Positions 1 to 31,753 of a DNA stretch of 31,753 bases are shown here, piece by piece. The stretch is taken from positions 1-31,753 of IMG/VR virus record IMGVR_UViG_3300020043_002756; one strand, 5' to 3'. Source of the DNA: a virus. Taxonomy: Duplodnaviria > Caudoviricetes. The stretch's first letter is position 1; each line of letters opens with the position of its first letter. The notes under the pieces were generated by a model. That model was given only the letters and a program-made list of their open reading frames with translations, did not search any database and was not told the DNA's origin. The translations under genes and the position numbers were made by a program.

Positions 1-3
1 ATG

Positions 4-76
4 CCATAACTGGCAAACGACCAACGGGAGTGAAGTCCAATGAGCGAAGCGAATGAAGTTGATGGCGTTGTTATGC
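4..76 (-). repeat. attC-like site A1
   Basis: CCATAAC(4-10)...GTTATGC(70-76); contains GTCC and GCGAAGC motifs; the stem is weaker than in the other sites. Confidence 0.65.
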
Positions 77-339
77 GCTGGTGTAGCGAGTTGCCAACAG
101 TTGCAGATTTGAATGGAAAATCAGAGGAATATTACTGGATGCGCGGCGGAGAATTGAATAGGCTAGTTATTGTAAGATGTAACAATGGCGTTATATCGAG
201 CGTCGATTACGGTGTGAGAAAGTTTAGAGCAGAAGTTAATTTTCAAGTTTTTGCTGAAAACTGGAGGAGCTGCATTTGGCGTGATGATTTTCCCGAAGGC
301 TTTGAATTTTATGGGCCAATTGCGAGGCCATTCGCATAA
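40..339 (+). CDS. Cassette hypothetical protein (start at 40 inside attC, or at ATG 73 in the core)
   Basis: 99 aa ORF; GGGAG at 26-30; stop TAA lies within CGCATAAC, the complement of GTTATGCG at 70-77. Confidence 0.7.
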   Translation: MSEANEVDGVVMRWCSELPTVADLNGKSEEYYWMRGGELNRLVIVRCNNGVISSVDYGVRKFRAEVNFQVFAENWRSCIWRDDFPEGFEFYGPIARPFA

Positions 340-387
340 CCCCGCTATTTTGCGGCAGAATGTCCGCCAACAATGCTGTTGTTAGGC
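334..387 (-). repeat. attC-like site A2
   Basis: GCATAAC-CCCGCTATTTTGCGG-CAGAATGT-CCGCCAACAATGCTGTT-GTTAGGC; near-identical to 31384-31438 in reverse. Confidence 0.85.
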
Positions 388-411
388 TGATTTTAACTTG
401 GAGATTGTGAA

Positions 412-630
412 ATGAAACCACAAGAGTTTACTGAATTTGAAAAAGCAAAGCCAGAAAAGAACAAGCACTTGATTGTTACAAATAATATAAGCGCAACCAA
501 TGCGCATGGGGAAATGTCGCACGTTTGGCTGACTACTTTCTGGTGCGAAAGTGAAAAGTATGACTGCATAACAACCTTTGATGAAGGTGACAGGCAAATA
601 CTTGGACTGACTCACTGGAAATACGCCTAA
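412..630 (+). CDS. Cassette hypothetical protein (C-terminal THW motif, as in DUF551-like small phage proteins)
   Basis: 72 aa; GGAG RBS; stop within GCCTAAC, the complement of GTTAGGC at 381-387. Confidence 0.75.
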   Translation: MKPQEFTEFEKAKPEKNKHLIVTNNISATNAHGEMSHVWLTTFWCESEKYDCITTFDEGDRQILGLTHWKYA

Positions 631-698
631 CCGTAGCTGTAAACGGTTGCGAAGCAATCCGATGAACGAAGTGAATGTATTTAACAGCGTTGTTATAC
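625..698 (-). repeat. attC-like site A3
   Basis: GCCTAAC...GCTGT-AAA / TTTAACAGC stem with a bulge...GTTATAC; inner CGG-TTGC GAA GCAATCCG hairpin. Confidence 0.8.
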
Positions 699-714
699 GC
701 TAAGGAGAACGATT

Positions 715-1107
715 ATGAAGAATGCAAGATATATGCGAGTTGATGCAGGTGTGCGTTACTGGGAAGATGCAGAAATAAATGGCGAAAGCAAGGAAGACGG
801 TAGCAATGTGCCATTCAAGAATGGGGGAAGCTGGCAGCCTGTAATTGACTTAATTGATGGCCGAGTTGTTGGATGGCCTGAAGATACAACAGCAAGCTTT
901 CATTTTAAAGTGTGCGATGCTGGGAATTATTATTTGCTTGATGCTGATACAAATATGATAGCAGAAAAACTAAATGGTTATGTGCCGGATGGCTTATGTC
1001 ATGGAGATAATGGCTACGGTGATTACATAATTTTTAATGTAGACAAATACGGTAAAATTGATAAGTACCGTTTGAATATTGATGACGATGAATGGGTGTG
1101 CGTATAA
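715..1107 (+). CDS. Cassette hypothetical phage protein
   Basis: 130 aa; AAGGAG RBS; ends in GCGTATAAC, the complement of GTTATACGC at 692-700. Confidence 0.85.
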   Translation: MKNARYMRVDAGVRYWEDAEINGESKEDGSNVPFKNGGSWQPVIDLIDGRVVGWPEDTTASFHFKVCDAGNYYLLDADTNMIAEKLNGYVPDGLCHGDNGYGDYIIFNVDKYGKIDKYRLNIDDDEWVCV

Positions 1108-1167
1108 CCGTTGCGTAATGGGCTGCGATAGCAGTCCAGCGAAGCGACATTAACGCGGTTGTTATAA
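1102..1167 (-). repeat. attC-like site A4
   Basis: GTATAAC...GCGT-AATG / CATTAACGC stem; GG-CTGC / GCAGTCC inner stem...GTTATAA. Confidence 0.8.
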
Positions 1168-1179
1168 ACCGGAGTATTT

Positions 1180-1791
1180 ATGAAAGTATTAATTGCATGT
1201 GAAAGTAGCGGAACAGTGCGCAATGCGTTCAGGGCGCTAGGGCATGATGCCTGGAGTTGCGATTTACTGGATGCTGATGACGGTAGTCAATACCACATAA
1301 AAGGCGATTGCATGACAGCAATACATGGCTATAAAACATGGGATTTGTTAATAGCACACCCGCCATGCACTTACTTAAGTGTTAGCGGGATGCACTGGAC
1401 GACACGAGGATTGCGTGACCCACAACTAACAGAGGATGCTTTTGAGTTTGCGCGGTTACTATTTGATGCGCCTATTGATAAAATTTGCATTGAAAACCCT
1501 GTTAGCATTATAAGCAGTCGAATTAGAAATCCAGACCAAATTATACAGCCGTATCAGTTTGGCCATGACGCAAGCAAAAAAACATGCTTGTGGCTTAAGG
1601 GATTGCCGTTGTTGCAGCACACAAATTTTGTTCCTGGGCGTGATGTAGCCGGCAAAAAACGCTGGGCAAACCAAACTGATAGCGGTCAAAATAAATTGCC
1701 GCCATCAAAAGACAGATGGAAACTGAGAAGCAAAACTTATGAAGGTATTGCTAAAGCGATGGCTGAACAGTGGGGCGAAATAGGTTTATAA
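1180..1791 (+). CDS. Cassette-borne DNA cytosine methyltransferase-like protein
   Basis: MKVLIACESSG SAM-binding-like start, catalytic-type HPPC, and ENPV motif; bracketed by GTTATAAACC / GGTTTATAAC. Confidence 0.8.
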   Translation: MKVLIACESSGTVRNAFRALGHDAWSCDLLDADDGSQYHIKGDCMTAIHGYKTWDLLIAHPPCTYLSVSGMHWTTRGLRDPQLTEDAFEFARLLFDAPIDKICIENPVSIISSRIRNPDQIIQPYQFGHDASKKTCLWLKGLPLLQHTNFVPGRDVAGKKRWANQTDSGQNKLPPSKDRWKLRSKTYEGIAKAMAEQWGEIGL

Positions 1792-1842
1792 CCATGCTTT
1801 TTAGCGGCTCGCAGAGTCCGCGCTAGAAAGCTGTTGTTAGGC
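1786..1842 (-). repeat. attC-like site A5
   Basis: TTATAAC...GCTTT / AAAGC and CGG-CTC / GAGTCCG stems...GTTAGGC. Confidence 0.8.
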
Positions 1843-1861
1843 GTGCTTTTGGAGAAAAATT

Positions 1862-2215
1862 ATGCGTGGTGAAGAAATAGCACTGCAAGCAATGAAAAAA
1901 GAACATGCTAGACTTAGAAAAATTGCAGATAAAGCAAAAGCTGAAGTTGATGCGTATTGTTCGGTAGGTAGTGAAATGCTTTCTATTTACGATGAATTAC
2001 GAAAAATAATCGAATCGAAAGAAACAGGTAAACACATTCTTGATAAGTTAAGCACATTGCAAAAGCGAGAGAAAGCAGCAAATAAATTAATGGCAGCAGA
2101 CTTTACAGCAATAAGCGAAAGGCAGTATGTAGCTGAAAGCAACGCAATGGCAATTGCTGGTGAAATATCAAGGCTTGAATTTAGGCTAAATTTGCGAAAT
2201 GGTAAGTACGCCTAA
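1862..2215 (+). CDS. Cassette hypothetical coiled-coil protein
   Basis: 117 aa; GGAG RBS; ends in ACGCCTAAC, the complement of GTTAGGCGT at 1836-1844. Confidence 0.8.
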   Translation: MRGEEIALQAMKKEHARLRKIADKAKAEVDAYCSVGSEMLSIYDELRKIIESKETGKHILDKLSTLQKREKAANKLMAADFTAISERQYVAESNAMAIAGEISRLEFRLNLRNGKYA

Positions 2216-2301
2216 CCCCAAGCTAACAGGTGAGCGAATGAACAAAGTGAATGAAGCGAGTCCAGCGAGTGAAACGAGCGATGTTGAGCGAGTTGTTATG
2301 T
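2210..2301 (-). repeat. attC-like site A6
   Basis: GCCTAAC...GCT-AACA / TGTTGAGC stem with an extra G...GTTATGT; long variable centre. Confidence 0.8.
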
Positions 2302-2507
2302 GTCAAAACCCAACATTGCCGAAGGGTAAAAAATACAAAGAAACGCAGTACTCGACTGTTAAAACACGCAGCGGGAAAGAATCTGTTCCGTTCCTTGGAT
2401 TACCATGCGGGATACATACGGTGCGCTTTTATAACGACAAAGGCGAGATGACGGTAAAAATTAAAACTTGGCTGTCTATGTCCGGGTACGCTTGGTGTGT
2501 ACTTTGA
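2238..2507 (+). CDS. Cassette hypothetical protein (start inside attC at 2238, or at ATG 2298)
   Basis: AGGTGA precedes ATG 2238; unit bracketed by a 13-bp perfect inverted repeat, GTTATGTGTCAAA / TTTGACACATAAC. Confidence 0.65.
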   Translation: MNKVNEASPASETSDVERVVMCQNPTLPKGKKYKETQYSTVKTRSGKESVPFLGLPCGIHTVRFYNDKGEMTVKIKTWLSMSGYAWCVL

Positions 2508-2508
2508 C

Positions 2509-2585
2509 ACATAACCCCTTGCTTTGCAGTGACGAGCAGAGCGAGGAATCCAGCCCGAAGGGCGAGCAACAGCATGTTGTTAAAC
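2509..2585 (-). repeat. attC-like site A7
   Basis: ACATAAC...TGCT-TTGC / GCAACAGCA stem...GTTAAAC; contains a GCCCGAAGGGC minihairpin. Confidence 0.8.
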
Positions 2586-2594
2586 GAGGTAGGT

Positions 2595-2849
2595 ATGAGC
2601 GAAAATATTCTTGGAATTGTTGGGATACTGGCAACTTTAGCATGGACGGCGTATATAGTTTTTGCTTCACGATATACATATCCGACAAATTGCAAAACAA
2701 AACGTGAACAGTTGATAAACAAGCATGGAACACTTGCTGAATTTACAACTGCGGTAAGATTAGCAGAAGAACAATTGTTTTGTACTACTGCTGAAGCAGA
2801 TTTGGCTATTAAAAAATATAAAAACGAACTTGATGAATGTGAACAATAG
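2595..2849 (+). CDS. Cassette membrane-anchored hypothetical protein
   Basis: GAGGT RBS before ATG 2595; N-terminal hydrophobic helix; bracketed by GTTAAACGA / TCGTTTAAC. Confidence 0.75.
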   Translation: MSENILGIVGILATLAWTAYIVFASRYTYPTNCKTKREQLINKHGTLAEFTTAVRLAEEQLFCTTAEADLAIKKYKNELDECEQ

Positions 2850-2852
2850 TTC

Positions 2853-2909
2853 GTTTAACCAAAAATGTAACCGGTAGCGCAGCGTATCCGGTTGACATAG
2901 TTGTTATGC
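2853..2909 (-). repeat. attC-like site A8 (best canonical example)
   Basis: The minus strand reads GCATAAC-AACTA-TGTCAACC-GGATACGCTGCGCTACC-GGTTACA-TTTTTG-GTTAAAC, i.e. R''-5nt-L''(8)-VTS-L'(7)-6nt-R'. Confidence 0.9.
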
Positions 2910-2943
2910 GCTGCACAAACTAACTTAACTTTATAGGTGATTT

Positions 2944-3273
2944 ATGACCGAACAAGCAATTGAACAAGAGATACAAGATAAAGGATTAACCGCGCCACGG
3001 TTAACGCCGGAACTGATTGACGCGGCAATACTTGATGAAGATTATCATGTGTTTGAAAAAACCTGCCTAACCGTTTGCTGCCTTACTTTGCAAAATGGAT
3101 TTACTGTAACTGGTGAAAGTGCGTGTGCAAGCCCTGAAAACTTTAACGCTGAAATTGGCAGAAAGATTGCCCGTGAAAATGCGCGCAATAAAATCTGGAT
3201 GCTTGAAGGTTATCTGCTTAAGAATCGCCTTTTTGTTAAGAAGAATTCTGGCGTTAGTGCTTTATTAGGTTAA
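2944..3273 (+). CDS. Cassette-borne N4 Gp49 / Sf6 gp66 family phage protein
   Basis: Characteristic LxNGFTVTGESACASPENFNAEIGRKIA...IWxLEGYLLK; bracketed by GTTATGCGC / GCGCATAAC. Confidence 0.9.
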   Translation: MTEQAIEQEIQDKGLTAPRLTPELIDAAILDEDYHVFEKTCLTVCCLTLQNGFTVTGESACASPENFNAEIGRKIARENARNKIWMLEGYLLKNRLFVKKNSGVSALLG

Positions 3274-3297
3274 TAACGTGCGCCGCTACCAATGGGC

Positions 3298-3351
3298 GCA
3301 TAACCCTGCTATTTTACGGCTGAAAGTCCGCGCAACAATGCGTAGTTAGGC
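3298..3351 (-). repeat. attC-like site A9
   Basis: GCATAAC-CCTGCTATTTTACGGCTGAAAGTCCGCGCAACAATGCGTA-GTTAGGC; same family as A2. Confidence 0.85.
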
Positions 3352-3363
3352 GCGAGGAGAACG

Positions 3364-3606
3364 ATGATGGAAGATAAAATTATACAAGTAAGCGGTTTTG
3401 GAGTTGAGTATAACAGTGCGACACAGTGCAATTATTTGCTTTGTGCGCTAACCGAATCTGGAAAGGTTTTGTTATCAACTGGTGATGGGGTGTGGATCGA
3501 TGTAAGCCCTAAACCTGCAAGCACTAAGGCTGTGAAAGATTATGGCTTTTGTACATATGGAAGCACATTTCCGTGCAATCCTGCATGTGAGAATGGGTGC
3601 GTATAA
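3364..3606 (+). CDS. Cassette hypothetical protein with Cys-rich C-terminus
   Basis: 80 aa; GAGGAG RBS; stop within GTATAAC. Confidence 0.75.
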   Translation: MMEDKIIQVSGFGVEYNSATQCNYLLCALTESGKVLLSTGDGVWIDVSPKPASTKAVKDYGFCTYGSTFPCNPACENGCV

Positions 3607-3716
3607 CACTTTATTTAATGAACATGCCTACATTTAGACAGGTTCGTTAAATACGGGAACGTAATTTTTAAGTGGTTGTTTTATAAATAATTTAATTCAA
3701 AAAGGTTCGTTAAATA
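3601..3716 (-). other. Array-terminal attI-like element, copy 1
   Basis: Core GTTATAC on the - strand; TATTTAATGAAC(3612-3623) inverted against GGTTCGTTAAATA direct repeats (3641-3653, 3704-3716); IHF-like site at 3669-3681; homologous to 30732-30848. Confidence 0.6.
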
Positions 3717-3725
3717 TGGCAAAAT

Positions 3726-3839
3726 ATGAATGACGATGCTAAGGCGCTGTATATGATGCTGCTTGGCTTCGATGAAATTGATTCGGATATTCAAACAGAA
3801 CAGAATTATGATTTGTTTGCTGAAGGTAATGTAGTATAA
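3726..3839 (+). CDS. Small acidic hypothetical protein (37 aa)
   Basis: Hand-translated ORF MNDDAKALY...DLFAEGNVV; weak RBS. Confidence 0.35.
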   Translation: MNDDAKALYMMLLGFDEIDSDIQTEQNYDLFAEGNVV

Positions 3840-3846
3840 TAAACAC

Positions 3847-3954
3847 ATCCTTGGCAGGATATTAAAGAGTAAGGCTTGTTGTGCGTTCTGGGGGTAACTC
3901 TACCCTTCTGCCAACACCTCGCGAGAGGTGAGAACGTACAACAGGCCTTTTTTT
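3847..3954 (+). ncRNA. Structured leader or antisense-type RNA with terminator-like U-tract
   Basis: TATAAT at 3835-3840; 19-bp stem 3871-3889/3931-3949 with two G-U pairs enclosing two hairpins (one with a GNRA loop), followed by a T-run. Confidence 0.6.
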
Positions 3955-3967
3955 ATGGGTGAGATAA

Positions 3968-6163
3968 ATGGAATATGAAGAGTTCTTGGCTAGAAAAACA
4001 ATACAGCCAATTATTAGCGGGCATACTGCTACTGATTTAAATTCTAACTTATTCGACTTCCAAAAGGTAATAGTTGAGTGGGCTTTAAGACGTGGGCGAG
4101 CTGCTATATTTGCTGATACTGGATTAGGAAAAACACTAATGCAAACATCGTGGGCTGATAATGTAGTAAAGCACACTGGAAAGAATGTGCTTATTGTTGC
4201 GCCTCTTTGTGTTGCGCATCAAACAGTCAATGAGTCATCAAAGTTTGGCATTGATGTTAATTACACTCGCAGTCAGGATGGCGTGAAAGATGGAATAAAT
4301 ATAACCAACTATGAAATGCTAGAACATTTTGATATCGATGAGTTCATTGGCGTAGTTTTGGATGAATCTAGCATTATAAAAAACCGTGATGGAAAAACTA
4401 GAAACGCACTGATTGAATCATGCCGCAACGTGCCGTATAAACTTTCATGCACTGCTACTCCAAGCCCTAATGACTTTATGGAATTGGGCAACCAGGCAGA
4501 ATGGTTAGGCATTGTTACTATGGTTGAGATGTTAGCAATGTTTTTTATCAATGATGCTGGAGATACTGGAACATGGATATTAAAAGGGCATGGGAAGGTT
4601 AAGTTTTGGGAATGGTTGGCTACATGGGCAATTGTGATTAAAACGCCATCGGATTTGGGATTTGATGGCGATAAATACATATTGCCAGAATTGAATATCA
4701 TATCTCACGTTGTTGAATCAAAAGTCACTAACGGGTTGTTTGCTGATATTGCTATGGGATTGATGGAAAGAAACGCAGCAAGAAAAGAGAGCATTGATGA
4801 CCGCGTTGCAAAGTGTGCTGAGATAGTTAATAACACCACAGGTCAATGGGTAGTGTGGTGTAATCGTAATGAAGAATCAGAGAAGCTTTGCGCGGCCATT
4901 GCAGGATCAAAAGACGTGAAAGGCTCTGATAGTATCGACTACAAGGAAAAGACAATAGACGCATTTACAGACGGATCATTACGAGTATTGATAAGCAAAG
5001 CATCCATTTGCGGTTATGGCATGAATTGGCAACATTGCAATAATACTGCATTTGTTGGTTTATCTGATTCATGGGAATCTTATTATCAGGCTATACGCAG
5101 GTTTTGGCGATTTGGTCAAAAGAATGCCGTAAATTGTCATGTTATTAGCGCTGAAAGTGAAGGGGCGGTAGTTGAGAATATCCGCAGAAAAGAAGAACAA
5201 AATAAAACAATGTCAGATGAAATGGTGATACATATGAGCACATACGTTAAAAATGAAGTATTTGGAATTGAACCACAAAAGGCAGAATATGAGCGCCGCG
5301 TTCATCATGGAGATGGATACACATTGCACAATGCTGATTGCATAGAATTAGCACGTGAGATTGAATCTGATAGCGTAGGATTTACTATTTATTCACCGCC
5401 TTTTGCTTCATTATTTACTTATTCAAACAGTGATAGGGATATGGGTAATAGTAAAGGCGAGGGGGAATTCTTCCAGCATTTCAGTTATTTGGTTGATGAA
5501 TTGTTACGGATAACTATACCAGGACGGTTAATGGCTGTTCACTGTATGCAATTGACAACATCAAAGGCTAACGATGGCTTTATCGGCATTCGTGATTTTA
5601 GAGGAGATTTAATCAGGATGTTTATTGATAAAGGATGGATTTACCATAGTGAAGTTTGCATCTGGAAAGATCCAGTAGTAGCAATGCAAAGGACTAAGGC
5701 ATTAGGACTATTACATAAAACGATTAAGAAAGATTCTTCAATGTCACGTCAAGGGTTAGCTGATTATTTAATTGTGTTTAGAAAGCCAGGCCAAAACATA
5801 GTACCTATTTCACATACGCCTGAACAGTTTCCAGTTGATATGTGGCAGCGTTATGCAAGTCCAGTGTGGTTTGATATCAACCAGACTCGAACTTTGAATT
5901 TCAGAGAAGCCAGAGAAGAAGATGATGTAAAACATATATGCCCATTGCAACTTGATGTGATTGAGCGGGCTTTAGAGTTATGGAGCGCGCCTAATGATTT
6001 GGCATTTAGTCCTTTTTTGGGTGTAGGCTCAGAGGGTTATTGTTCAGTTAAAATGGGCAGGAGATTTATAGGTTCAGAATTAAAGCCTAGCTATTTTGAT
6101 CAAGCTGTTAAAAACTTAGCTGATGCTAAACGTGATACTTTAGATTTATTCTCACAGTTATAG
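3968..6163 (+). CDS. SF2 (SNF2-like) helicase fused to an N4-C/N6-A DNA methyltransferase
   Basis: Walker A DTGLGKT, DESS, TATP and QAIRRFWRFGQ motifs; C-terminal SPPF, HICP and SPFLGVGSEG methyltransferase motifs. Confidence 0.9.
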   Translation: MEYEEFLARKTIQPIISGHTATDLNSNLFDFQKVIVEWALRRGRAAIFADTGLGKTLMQTSWADNVVKHTGKNVLIVAPLCVAHQTVNESSKFGIDVNYTRSQDGVKDGINITNYEMLEHFDIDEFIGVVLDESSIIKNRDGKTRNALIESCRNVPYKLSCTATPSPNDFMELGNQAEWLGIVTMVEMLAMFFINDAGDTGTWILKGHGKVKFWEWLATWAIVIKTPSDLGFDGDKYILPELNIISHVVESKVTNGLFADIAMGLMERNAARKESIDDRVAKCAEIVNNTTGQWVVWCNRNEESEKLCAAIAGSKDVKGSDSIDYKEKTIDAFTDGSLRVLISKASICGYGMNWQHCNNTAFVGLSDSWESYYQAIRRFWRFGQKNAVNCHVISAESEGAVVENIRRKEEQNKTMSDEMVIHMSTYVKNEVFGIEPQKAEYERRVHHGDGYTLHNADCIELAREIESDSVGFTIYSPPFASLFTYSNSDRDMGNSKGEGEFFQHFSYLVDELLRITIPGRLMAVHCMQLTTSKANDGFIGIRDFRGDLIRMFIDKGWIYHSEVCIWKDPVVAMQRTKALGLLHKTIKKDSSMSRQGLADYLIVFRKPGQNIVPISHTPEQFPVDMWQRYASPVWFDINQTRTLNFREAREEDDVKHICPLQLDVIERALELWSAPNDLAFSPFLGVGSEGYCSVKMGRRFIGSELKPSYFDQAVKNLADAKRDTLDLFSQL

Positions 6164-12331: not shown

Positions 12332-13339
12332 ATGGGTAAGCTATCTAAAATAATCAGCAAGATAGACGATATTAAAAGGAATAAAAACGCATCAAGTATG
12401 GCAGTAATTACTGGTGCAGTTGCGTCTGGAGGGTTATTAGGTAGTAGCCAAGCAGATGCAAGTATGATAGGGCAAAGCGCTAAGACTTTTAACAAAGCAG
12501 CTTTGGAAGTTGCGCAAGCAATGGAGAAGCAAGGAGCGCCAATGGAGGCTATCAGAAAGACTACAGGCTATCAGTTCGGAACGCCAATCCATCGTGGTGC
12601 AGATGGTAAATGGAGACAAGAGATTGGCGATTTTGAAAATGACTATGAATCTTATGCAAGGTTAGCCGGAGAAGAAGAGGCAAGGCAAACACAAAAGCGT
12701 ATTGGCTTATCAATGAAGGATCGTATAGATAGGAATCCTGACCTTGATTTTGATACACCTCCAGAGCAGCAAATAGTAAGAGGACAAGCCGGAAGCGCTA
12801 CAACTCCTGTAATGGCTGCAACAGGATTAACAGGATTGGGTTTATCAGGAATTCAGGCTTTAAATGGAGAAAATGCCAAGCAAATATATAAATTTGCAGA
12901 TAAACGAAATAAACGAAAAATGCTGAAAGCGGCCTATGAAAACACGCCATTTTATAAAGGAGTATCTGACATTTCTTCATTAGTAGGTGCTGGCGATGTT
13001 TTACGTGGAATCATGGCAGCAAAATTAGCTGCTACTGGGAAAATGAATGAATACCCAGGAATAGATAAGCAGATATCTGATGCCGAGGCGATGAAAACAT
13101 AAACAGGTAAGAAAATAGAATCTGCATTTGTTAATTCAGTCGCTCCAGTATTGTCCGAATTCATACCGTTTTATGAGCAGCGAATGAAGCAGATACAAGA
13201 CTTTTCACAATCAATGGATGATAGCAGGAATCCAGAATTATCGGCATTGCGTGCTATGAGTATAGAAATTCCTTCATCTATTGGCGCGAGTATATTATCA
13301 ATGCCTGATTATTTGCTTGACACGTTAAACAAGAATTGA
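12332..13339 (+). pseudogene. Degenerate LPD23-like polyvalent-protein gene with an in-frame TAA at 13100-13102
   Basis: RGADGKWRQEI and YARLAGEEEAR motifs; the reading frame stays open past the single stop and is in frame with ORF 13151-13339. Confidence 0.55.
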
Positions 13340-29734: not shown

Positions 29735-29822
29735 AAGTAACACCTAGTTGTTTATGGTGGCCCTAACCGGCACAGCGGGCCAGACTGCTAACAGGTCAAA
29801 TACGCTTAAACCTTGCCACACA

Positions 29823-30494
29823 TTACAGTGCTTCGCGGAGGGTAGTCACGCTAACACCATCGCGCCCATGTGTTATAGGCGTTTGCGATTCTTTTTTTAA
29901 CTGCCTAATTTTGTTTCTGTACATAGCAATAATTGCCCTGTAATCGTCAGGTGTCAATTTTATTTTTGGGTCATGTGTGTTTTCCAATTCTTCCACTTTT
30001 CCCAATCCTATCTTTTTGATCAGATTAACTCTGTATTGCGCTGTAACAGTCTCTGTTTTGACGTTGTGGCCTATAAATCCACCATTGCATATCTTGCACT
30101 GCTTGTGAACGTTAAGCTCATTAAACGCAAGCCAGGGCCTTGCTCCTCGTGATAAATAATGCCCCGCATCCCATAGTTGAGTTAACCCAGAATTGTACAA
30201 ATAAACATCATCGGCATCACACGAAATACAACGCAAATCTTTATCACGCAAACGGATAAACTCATTAAATACGCGCTGCGCCTTTGGCTTTAGTTCTTTA
30301 ACAGTAAGTAATTTTTCTTTTGCTTTTAAGTGCGCTTTCTTTTTGTAAGCTTCAATCCTCTTCTTTTCGTGCTCAGCTCGTTTTATTGCATCAGCCTTTC
30401 CTTTAACTAACGCACATGTGTAGCAGCGCGGCTGCGCAAACTTGAACGGCTGAAACCATTCTTTACAGTCTTTGCATTTTCTTTGCTTGTACAT
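29823..30494 (-). CDS. ninG: NinG/Rap-family endonuclease
   Basis: RKCKDC, AQRVFNEFIRLRD..CISC, WDAGHYLSRGA and NVHKQCKICN motifs; start coupled to the upstream stop. Confidence 0.88.
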   Translation of the reverse strand: MYKQRKCKDCKEWFQPFKFAQPRCYTCALVKGKADAIKRAEHEKKRIEAYKKKAHLKAKEKLLTVKELKPKAQRVFNEFIRLRDKDLRCISCDADDVYLYNSGLTQLWDAGHYLSRGARPWLAFNELNVHKQCKICNGGFIGHNVKTETVTAQYRVNLIKKIGLGKVEELENTHDPKIKLTPDDYRAIIAMYRNKIRQLKKESQTPITHGRDGVSVTTLREAL

Positions 30495-30731: not shown

Positions 30732-30848
30732 CACATTAACGAACCTTTTTAAATTAAACCAAATAAAAACAACAACTTAAAAACCACCCTTCCGTATTTA
30801 ACGAACACGTCTACATCTATACAAGTTCATTAAATAAAAGTGTTAAAC
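30732..30848 (+). other. Array-terminal attI-like element, copy 2
   Basis: TTAACGAAC direct repeats (30736-30744, 30798-30806); inverted GTTCATTAAATA (30825-30836); IHF-like site at 30767-30779; core GTTAAAC at 30842-30848. Confidence 0.6.
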
Positions 30849-31097
30849 GAACTCAAATTCTAGTTCGCTCAAATCCATATCTAGTGTTTCTTTATCTGTG
30901 TGAACACAATAATCATGGTTAGATAACCAATTGAAATTAACTATCTGCCACTTCCAGCCGCCTTTGCATAAAACCCTGCGACATTTTCTTATAACTATTG
31001 TGTCTATGTCATATATAACACCGCCGCTACATCCTATGCCATTTCGCAATGATGAAAATTTTATTTTAACCGGTGCATATAATTTTGGTAATTTCAT
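30843..31097 (-). CDS. Cassette hypothetical protein
   Basis: 84 aa; AGGAGG RBS; bracketed by GTTAAACGAA (30842-30851) / TTCGTTTAAC (31108-31117). Confidence 0.75.
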   Translation of the reverse strand: MKLPKLYAPVKIKFSSLRNGIGCSGGVIYDIDTIVIRKCRRVLCKGGWKWQIVNFNWLSNHDYCVHTDKETLDMDLSELEFEFV

Positions 31098-31110: not shown

Positions 31111-31158
31111 GTTTAACTACTAGCCGCATCGGACAAGCCGCTGGGCATGGGGTTAGGC
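31111..31158 (+). repeat. attC-like site B1 (48 bp)
   Basis: GTTTAAC-TACTA-GCCGCATCGGAC-AA-GCCGCTGGGC-ATGGG-GTTAGGC. Confidence 0.75.
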
Positions 31159-31356
31159 GTCATTACTCTTGTCGTAATTGTTGCCTATTTTATTTATTAA
31201 TCCATTACCAATTAAAAATGCTACAGTTTGCGCCATGCTCAAAAAAGCTAATTTAACTAAGCTGAACTCTAAGCCTAAAACGCCACTCCAACCCATGTAC
31301 AAAACTATAAAAATACATATCGGTATGATTATTATATGTGCTGTCAATCTTTTCAT
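31153..31356 (-). CDS. Cassette membrane protein with two TM helices
   Basis: GGAG RBS before ATG 31356; bracketed by GTTAGGCGT / ACGCCTAAC. Confidence 0.75.
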   Translation of the reverse strand: MKRLTAHIIIIPICIFIVLYMGWSGVLGLEFSLVKLAFLSMAQTVAFLIGNGLINKIGNNYDKSNDA

Positions 31357-31383: not shown

Positions 31384-31438
31384 GCCTAACAAAAGCATTG
31401 TTGGCTGGCACAAGTGCCGCAAAATAGCGGGGTTATGT
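31384..31438 (+). repeat. attC-like site B2
   Basis: Reverse complement is near-identical to A2 (334-387). Confidence 0.85.
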
Positions 31439-31442
31439 GAAT

Positions 31443-31700
31443 TCAATAGCGTATAGTGCTGCCTTTAAAAAGCAGGCCCCCGCATACAGTACCAGTTACA
31501 GTTTTTCCATTTGAGTTTTTTGCAGTAAATCCAGTATGATAAGTATCGTCTTTCCCGCATTCAAAGAATTGGTATCCTGTAAATTTAATATCAGTAAAGC
31601 CTTCATTGTCTAATGCTTCAAATGCTTTGCCTTCATTTGTGCATCCACATAACAACGCTGCTAAAAGGACAGCACTTGCCAGTATTTTAGTTTTGTTCAT
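31443..31700 (-). CDS. Cassette lipoprotein
   Basis: Signal peptide MNKTKILASAVLLAALLCGC with a lipobox-like LCGC. Confidence 0.8.
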   Translation of the reverse strand: MNKTKILASAVLLAALLCGCTNEGKAFEALDNEGFTDIKFTGYQFFECGKDDTYHTGFTAKNSNGKTVTGTVCGGLLFKGSTIRY

Positions 31701-31701
31701 T
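31647..31701 (+). repeat. Degenerate attC-like site B3 overlapping the lipoprotein signal-peptide codons
   Basis: ACATAAC-AACGC-TGCTAAAA-GGAC...TTTTAG-TTTT-GTTCATT; CACATAAC complements GTTATGTG at 31432-31439. Confidence 0.55.
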
Positions 31702-31753
31702 TCAGTAAATCCTCATTGTTAATTAATTTTGTCATGCTGCCTTTTGCAGTCAA

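Follow-up and report, generated by a model that had tools for sequence, protein, structure and literature searches.

Integrons are generally regarded as a bacterial tool. They stock anti-phage systems (bioRxiv 10.1101/2024.07.02.601686), and clusters of their attC recombination sites have already been published for phages, where two attC sites of PH101 recombined with the integron integrase IntI1 (PMC9892861). The preliminary description of the locus considered here overlooked these published examples; IntI1 recombination was shown there for PH101 and TJE1 sites that are similar to the present ones (PMC9892861). The locus lies in the IMG/VR record IMGVR_UViG_3300020043_002756, a linear sequence of 31,753 bases that CheckV rates as 86% complete and that was analysed in full (the window). 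It carries a row of attC-type cassettes, which was confirmed as real, and the layout of this row is the mirror of that of bacterial integrons, with the recombining (bottom) strand of the sites being the coding strand of the genes. No description of inverted phage attC arrays was found in the literature searched, the coverage of which excluded most subscription journals. The account we favour as probable is that these are integron-type cassettes in mirror layout, likely cut at AA|C by a host integrase and likely inserted at a 115-bp entry site.

Array layout and core pairing

Array 1 consists of nine open reading frames (ORFs) alternating with nine attC-type sites at positions 4–3351, the sites (0–8) measuring 73, 54, 74, 66, 57, 92, 77, 57 and 54 bp. 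The alternation of nine ORFs with TAAC...GTTA spacers and the eight core pairs listed in the preliminary description were all present. Perfect complementary runs across the gene were 8, 7, 9, 10, 9, 13, 9 and 9 nt long for these pairs, and core runs within a spacer just 4–6 nt. The cross-gene runs add up to 78; the mean for the complete set of 362,880 re-pairings is 47.2, and 16 of them reach 78 (P=4.4e-5). Complementary cores therefore flank the gene in 8/9 array 1 cassettes; the cores of the ninth, omitted from the earlier list, do not match (run 4). Other details had to be revised. Site 0 is retained as a site but is truncated by the contig start, and its TAAC at 7–10 is the inner L box, as seen from an intact homologue in the viral locus L168. 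The tenth spacer (3601–3715, 115 bp) has no attC arm geometry and is a separate element. As site finders, free-energy folding alone did not single out the sites, and a chain detector that relied on AAC/GTT pairing alone was abandoned as insufficiently specific, since it reported chains in the majority of loci.

A second array, outside the span of the preliminary description, lies on the minus strand at 31438–30734 and comprises two sites, two complete cassettes and a copy of the 115-bp terminal element. Both complete cassettes (2/2) have matching cores, over 9 and 10 nt. Read in gene direction, both arrays lead away from the segment missing from the assembly.

Polarity of the sites

The first extrahelical base selects the attC strand that recombines (PMC2727003). 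A bulge score recording which arm holds this base was calculated for each site, and the bulge was found in the arm before the next gene in 10/10 intact sites (scores 5–8), one of them (site 4) being tied with no bulge. In controls with IntI, the bulge was in the stop-codon arm in 16/16 Vibrio integron sites, and the same was observed for all 15 detected Shewanella M16-3 sites and for 3 in TJE1. An attC covariance model, proposed earlier as a check on both strands, was built from 52 canonical sites, across which the imposed stem covaries. Its seven best matches were array sites, every one of which lay on the strand opposite its genes.

Because the bulge arm and the covariance model agree, the coding strand was taken as the attC bottom strand. 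This inverted polarity in turn predicts a crossover AA|C at the 3' end of each gene, with the hairpin travelling with the downstream gene. Pairing of cores across a gene would be the same for both ends, so pairing alone cannot show which end is cut. The G|TT crossover on the gene strand that had been suggested is not supported, as the extrahelical base, the covariance model and the breakpoints described below all favour the opposite end. All oriented cassettes in the window are inverted, and none has the canonical form of an ORF on the attC top strand with attC 3' of it and expression from Pc.

Breakpoints and exchanges in related DNA

Contigs from public runs were aligned with the array and joints were taken at 95% likeness. 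In X3 (depth 28; 242 letters on the shorter side) and X4, the end of gene 1 at 341 is joined through 37 letters, which by eye resemble the site 3 body, to 1144 and gene 4; cassettes 2 and 3 are therefore absent, and the remaining hairpin is gene 4's own type, not site 1. In X2, the junction between the end of gene 9 and the body of site 6 falls inside a shared ATAAC. Gene 9 is followed in X1 by 129 other letters from 3607 and in X4 by the same continuation as in the window, so that three different sequences follow its final AAC across the public contigs and the window, despite its unmatched cores, while site 8 remains with gene 9 in the public contigs. For contigs in X1, X6 and X4 the match begins at 2852, 2856 and 3299 after other DNA, and runs through the hairpin into the next cassette. 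In L168, the site 7 body is identical before a gene 8 homologue (84% at the amino acid level), with an unrelated gene before that body and another hairpin after the homologue's final AAC.

The AAC end is involved in 3/5 joints, in the loose ends at 3607, 2852, 2856 and 3299, and in L168; the expectation of breakpoints at AA|C is thus borne out for these three joints and not for the other two. Near-identical cassettes occur beside different neighbours, as the preliminary description had anticipated for related DNA. Its picture of attC-type cassettes in varying contexts holds, although not with the canonical geometry of a G|TT crossover on the gene strand and a hairpin that stays with the preceding gene. 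The array is a genuine attC cassette system that has been shuffled recently, with swaps at AAC in related DNA. Among 19 same-cassette context pairs from the fetched loci, which share members and are non-independent, the body was kept on the side that the inverted polarity predicts in 8 and on the other side in 0, while both flanks changed in 8, 2 were intermediate and 1 was unchanged. A 687-bp deletion between 2655 and 3343 in X1 and X2 fuses the start of gene 7 to gene 9, and 2668–2794 is uncovered in X1–X4 at 95% likeness.

Hairpins of integron origin might by now be shuffled mainly by homologous or microhomology recombination between the attC families they share, through phage or host recombination proteins rather than IntI. 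Near-identical bodies do recur within and between phages, both flanks changed in 8/19 of the non-independent context pairs, the 2655–3343 deletion has a 5-nt overlap, and the phage encodes NinG/Rap but no integrase. However, most breakpoints fall exactly after AAC and the bodies that follow are unrelated. Moreover, when a body type occurs with a new gene, its outer flank is altered so that it pairs with that gene's far end (site 0 type, window versus L168), which fits selection on the circle form. We regard recombination of this kind as an unlikely main cause of the shuffling.

The terminal element as a candidate entry site

Copy 1 of the 115-bp element (3601..3715, minus strand) is a candidate attI-type entry site with a predicted crossover at 3606|3607. 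Copy 2 (30734..30848, plus strand) forms the end of array 2, before a 76-aa ORF and ninG. The two copies are 81% identical to each other. The element is kept in both arrays and has a counterpart at the equivalent position in L168; the adjoining cassette differs in all three cases, and similarity among the copies stops at G|TT. It sits at the attI position in terms of attC polarity but has no attC geometry, and over a short stretch its last bases resemble those in which the Shewanella attI in L166 ends. No further match was found in the fetched loci or GenBank phages, including by pattern scan. On its position, conservation and likeness to the Shewanella attI, the element is a likely candidate for an attI-type entry site. 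It also holds a palindrome with 19-bp arms and two 14-bp direct repeats, which make a promoter/operator role conceivable, and it may serve as such for the genes behind it. One cassette retains the hairpin in front of it in L173, L179, L196 and L214–L216, where non-attC sequences, perhaps representing further families of entry sites, come after its AAC.

Source of the integrase

No tyrosine recombinase was found among the 46 ORFs of the window and no IntI (TIGR02249) in its six frames, the genome being 86% complete. The array probably works like an integron array; as an attC cluster with no neighbouring intI it qualifies as a CALIN (cluster of attC sites lacking integron integrases), and is neither a complete integron, which would have intI beside attI, nor a set of canonical cassettes. 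The IntI cut-off was passed by 0/25 records (24 array-bearing records and the near-identical L080), 5 of which are at least 90% complete, and another tyrosine recombinase, not IntI, is present in 2/18 array-bearing records. An IntI relative is encoded in 22 viral loci. In L217/L218, a gene 3 homologue lies antisense among canonical cassettes beside intI. In a Methylotenera metagenome-assembled genome (MAG), an inverted array with a gene 5 homologue adjoins endolysin and spanin genes, and a different contig encodes a full IntI. IntI is also encoded by 114/301 genomes of the family of genome G061. The simplest reading is that a host IntI likely acts in trans.

Alternatively, the system could be the same but depend on an integrase of the phage itself, with its gene in the segment that is missing between the arrays. 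The genome is linear and 86% complete, and among the 22 viral loci with an IntI relative, L315 and L308 have attC sites of phage-type polarity with same-strand ORFs directly upstream of intI. As both loci are proviruses by classification, the intI in them may belong to the host. The absence of IntI above the cut-off from all 25 records and the occupation by other genes of the intI position beside the terminal element in both arrays also argue against an integrase of the phage's own, which we consider improbable. A full IntI together with a further tyrosine recombinase was also found in the viral records L302, L303 and L304, in which the region upstream of intI was examined. In that region L303 and L304 have their sequence in common as far as AAG|TT and diverge beyond it; the record containing L303 is complete, 36 kb long and has terminal repeats.

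Distribution of the inverted layout

Loci were retrieved using proteins of the window and patterns derived from the sites, on both strands, and distinct cassettes were counted through one fixed filter. Viral contigs contained 46 inverted, 0 canonical and 17 unclear cassettes, the inverted ones being in 20 contigs. Bacterial genome contigs contained 59 canonical, 1 inverted and 8 unclear cassettes; in the same categories, published phage records contained 17, 2 and 9 and metagenome contigs 1, 1 and 5. The orientation split of 46:0 versus 59:1 is a sharp, testable rule but no census, as the search patterns were derived from phage sites.

The attC model was also run on 25 P22-portal relatives (47–100% amino acid identity), one of which is the same phage without the array regions, and 0/25 had a match at E 0.001, indicating that the array is not a general trait of the P22-portal lineage. 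For gene 3, 51 metagenomic homologues were found; an upstream attC was detected in 9, all with the inverted layout, and in none of the remaining 42. An ordinary gene therefore seems to have been packaged in inverted orientation. A query of the ESM Atlas with gene 3 returned nothing usable. Among the 40 matches listed of 223 GenBank phage records, only homologues of genes 4 and 8 were found; GenBank phages gave no match to site 1, and pattern scans for the site 1 family in genomes and for the left arm of site 5 found nothing. A gene 8 homologue near the integron of G176 was considered as a cassette and left uncounted, as it lies 1.8 kb beyond the last attC.

These distributions bear on whether the array is a fragment of a bacterial chromosomal integron that was captured once and is now inert. 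Such a route has been published for Vibrio and Shewanella prophages (PMC9892861), and site 5 is a member of a family common in bacterial integrons. However, the bacterial arrays are canonical (59/60 oriented cassettes), such cargo as could be identified is of phage type and is found in other phages without attC, and the two arrays run in opposite directions with one shared end element. The swaps in public contigs and L168 largely refute a single inert capture, which we find scarcely credible.

Individual cassettes and expression

All array 1 genes are on the plus strand, and their sites, except site 4, have the top strand on the minus strand. Site 0 (1..76), cut by the contig start and intact in its L168 homologue, scored 26.5 bits on the minus strand. 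Its body holds an in-frame ATG at 40, behind GGGAG, for gene 1 (40..339), which encodes 88 aa from ATG 73 or 99 aa from ATG 40, has no family and takes its TAA stop from the core of site 1. Site 1 (334..387; bulge right 5, left 1) reached just 11.2 bits; its predicted crossover is 339|340, the joint lies at 341, and its sequence family is shared with sites 8 and B1. Gene 2 (412..630; 72 aa; no family) is followed by site 2 (625..698; 33.8 bits on the minus strand; bulge right 8, left 4), the body of which contains a 13-codon leader ending just 5' of the ribosome-binding site of gene 3 (715..1107; 130 aa; no family). Site 3 (1102..1167; 33.3 bits on the minus strand; bulge right 8, left 1) precedes gene 4 (1180..1791), which encodes a 203-aa DNA methyltransferase (phrog_757, E 6e-65).

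Site 4 (1786..1842) is of ambiguous polarity, with bulge scores of right 7, none 7 and left 2, and 12.7 bits on the plus versus 9.6 on the minus strand. The homologue of gene 5 (1862..2215; 117 aa) in the inverted array of the phage-like Methylotenera MAG contig has 50% amino acid identity. Site 5 (2210..2301; 55 bits on the minus strand; bulge right 7, left 1) supplies an in-frame ATG at 2238 for gene 6 (2238..2507; no family), which encodes 89 aa from this start or 69 aa from ATG 2298. Site 6 (2509..2585; 26.8 bits on the minus strand; bulge right 8, left 1), with joints to 2511, is followed by gene 7 (2595..2849; 84 aa; no family), which has a hydrophobic N-terminus. Site 7 (2853..2909; 17.1 bits on the minus strand; bulge right 8, left 3), the one unchanged in L168, precedes gene 8 (2944..3273; 109 aa), a member of the N4 gp49/Sf6 gene 66 family (PF13876, E 9e-33). 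Site 8 (3298..3351; bulge right 5, left 2) scored 8.5 bits, and gene 9 (3364..3606; 80 aa) has no family.

In array 2 the genes are on the minus strand and the sites have their top strand on the plus strand, opposite the genes. Gene b1 (31443..31700; 85 aa; phrog_902) has no clear attC upstream before the contig end; a possible attC over its start (31647–31724) had no model match and was left uncounted. Site B1 (31384..31438; 11 bits on the plus strand) is followed by gene b2 (31153..31356; 67 aa, hydrophobic; cores matching over 9 nt), site B2 (31111..31158; 17.8 bits on the plus strand) and gene b3 (30843..31097; 84 aa; cores matching over 10 nt). Searches of 12 cassette proteins against PADLOC and NCBIfam gave zero matches.

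The spacers may also act in expression. The core TAA is the stop codon in 6/9 genes, and under an AA|C cut these stops remain with their own gene. The site 0 body provides an unrelated L168 gene with the same 11 N-terminal residues as gene 1, and some hairpin bodies likely contribute a start codon or a leader to the gene they travel with. It could be argued that the spacers function mainly in RNA, where they would provide translation starts, leaders, processing sites or weak terminators, with DNA mobility a relic. The in-frame starts in the site 0 and 5 bodies, the leader ORF in site 2 and the six core stop codons are in keeping with this. Such a function would leave unexplained the cross-gene pairing, the strand-specific bulge and the reordering of 95–100% identical cassettes, and there was no Rfam match; scans for Rfam families, tRNAs, promoters and terminators gave nothing above background. 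A mainly RNA-level function is very improbable, and an RNA role can coexist with mirror-layout integron-type cassettes.

Phage genome context

The P22-like context given in the preliminary description was corroborated, with window proteins matching the P22 portal, coat, gp4, gp10 and gp7 and the Sf6-type small terminase. Further genes encode a helicase–methylase fusion, an endolysin and NinG. The fusion (3968–6163, plus strand) is a 731-aa protein with an SNF2-type helicase and an N6/N4 DNA methylase, two close relatives of which (80–90% at the amino acid level; L001, L002, L032) also have inverted arrays nearby. Just 5' of this gene, at 3871–3950 (plus strand), is a very stable three-way RNA hairpin followed by a U run (z −6.1), which had no Rfam match and could be either a terminator or a small structured RNA. 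Between portal and scaffold, a 256-aa ORF (12332–13102, plus strand) has an LPD23 domain (large polyvalent protein associated). At 29760–29880 (minus strand), the ninG frame enters a stretch with TAAC and GTTA motifs, possibly a decayed attC, which had no model match.

Proposed mechanism and implications

Observed directly were the geometry and polarity of the sites, the pairing of cores across genes, exchanges at AAC in related DNA and, for the part of the genome that is assembled, the lack of IntI. In the mechanism we propose, the recombining strand of each attC hairpin lies on the coding strand, so that the hairpin would move with the downstream gene. A host integron integrase would cut at AA|C, at the gene 3' ends, excise cassettes through a single-stranded circle and insert them at the 115-bp element ending each array. 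Transcription of the genes would start at phage early promoters within the missing segment and proceed in the direction of the entry site. The flip may serve to accommodate phage early promoters at the far end, to silence cassettes exchanged with the host, or to expose the non-template strand in transcription.

Several observations weigh against this mechanism. About 14% of the phage genome is absent from the assembly, and recombination, the circle form and integrase action at the window sites are what we infer. Model scores are at noise level for sites 1, 8 and B1, and for site 4 they slightly favour the coding strand. As single-stranded DNA the native sites fold weakly, with z from +2.1 to −3.3 and below −2 in 3/13. 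The overlap at the 2655–3343 joint lies at the other (GTT) end of site 8, the joint 3525–3754 is unrelated to the cores, and the 8 context pairs with both flanks changed likewise weigh against it. The rearranged contigs are short (most <600 nt) and mostly from one study (X1–X4), and may come from related phages, bacteria or circles, a circle and a linear relative being indistinguishable. The genomes in G061's family gave DNA matches in 3/301 only, all weak, and no host assignment from them. The Methylotenera MAG contig may be mis-binned, and the attI assignment draws on position, conservation and the short Shewanella attI likeness.

If phages do rely on integron chemistry of reversed polarity and on a borrowed integrase, they would gain site-specific shuffling of early accessory genes such as methyltransferases, and a direct gene-exchange route would connect phages and host integrons. 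We further suggest, tentatively, that phages might run their own mirror-image integron, with attI-type entry sites and backward-built cassettes that the host IntI moves. The flip would then be a firewall, with captured host anti-phage cassettes antisense and silent in the phage, and phage cassettes parked in a host integron likewise antisense and silent. On this tentative view, the pairing of one hairpin body with several unrelated phage genes would also make the arrays a source of new cassettes, which bears on the question of cassette origin. With its eleven natural sites and two candidate entry sites, the window lends itself to existing conjugation assays.

Comparison with known systems

The phage CALINs of Qi et al. 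2023 are likewise integrase-free attC clusters, often with DNA methyltransferase cargo (PMC9892861). The sites of the PH101 CALIN look like those of the window, and our own check indicated the same inverted layout, the annotated genes gp133–135 being antisense to the sites between which they lie. By contrast, the TJE1 CALIN is canonical by bulge score. Published phage CALINs have 2–4 sites according to Table S1 and the Figure 2 legend of that paper (PMC9892861), compared with 9+2 in two arrays here. The portions of its text consulted call the TJE1 and PH101 arrays typical and report no gene-to-attC inversion, nor an entry site in a virulent phage or natural reordering (PMC9892861).

With bacterial integrons, as described in the portions of PMC4889954 and PMC2727003 consulted, the window arrays share R/L box spacing, an unpaired central spacer and an extrahelical base, as well as circle-form core pairing and a body fixed to one side of the crossover. 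They differ in that the genes are antisense to the attC top strand, the hairpin comes before the gene and intI is missing in cis, and transcription from a promoter at the entry site would run antisense through the cassettes. Inverted-integrase integrons of the Treponema type are likewise an orientation departure within the integron family (PMC4889954). There, intI is flipped relative to attC, whereas in the window the cargo genes are flipped relative to their own attC and intI is absent.

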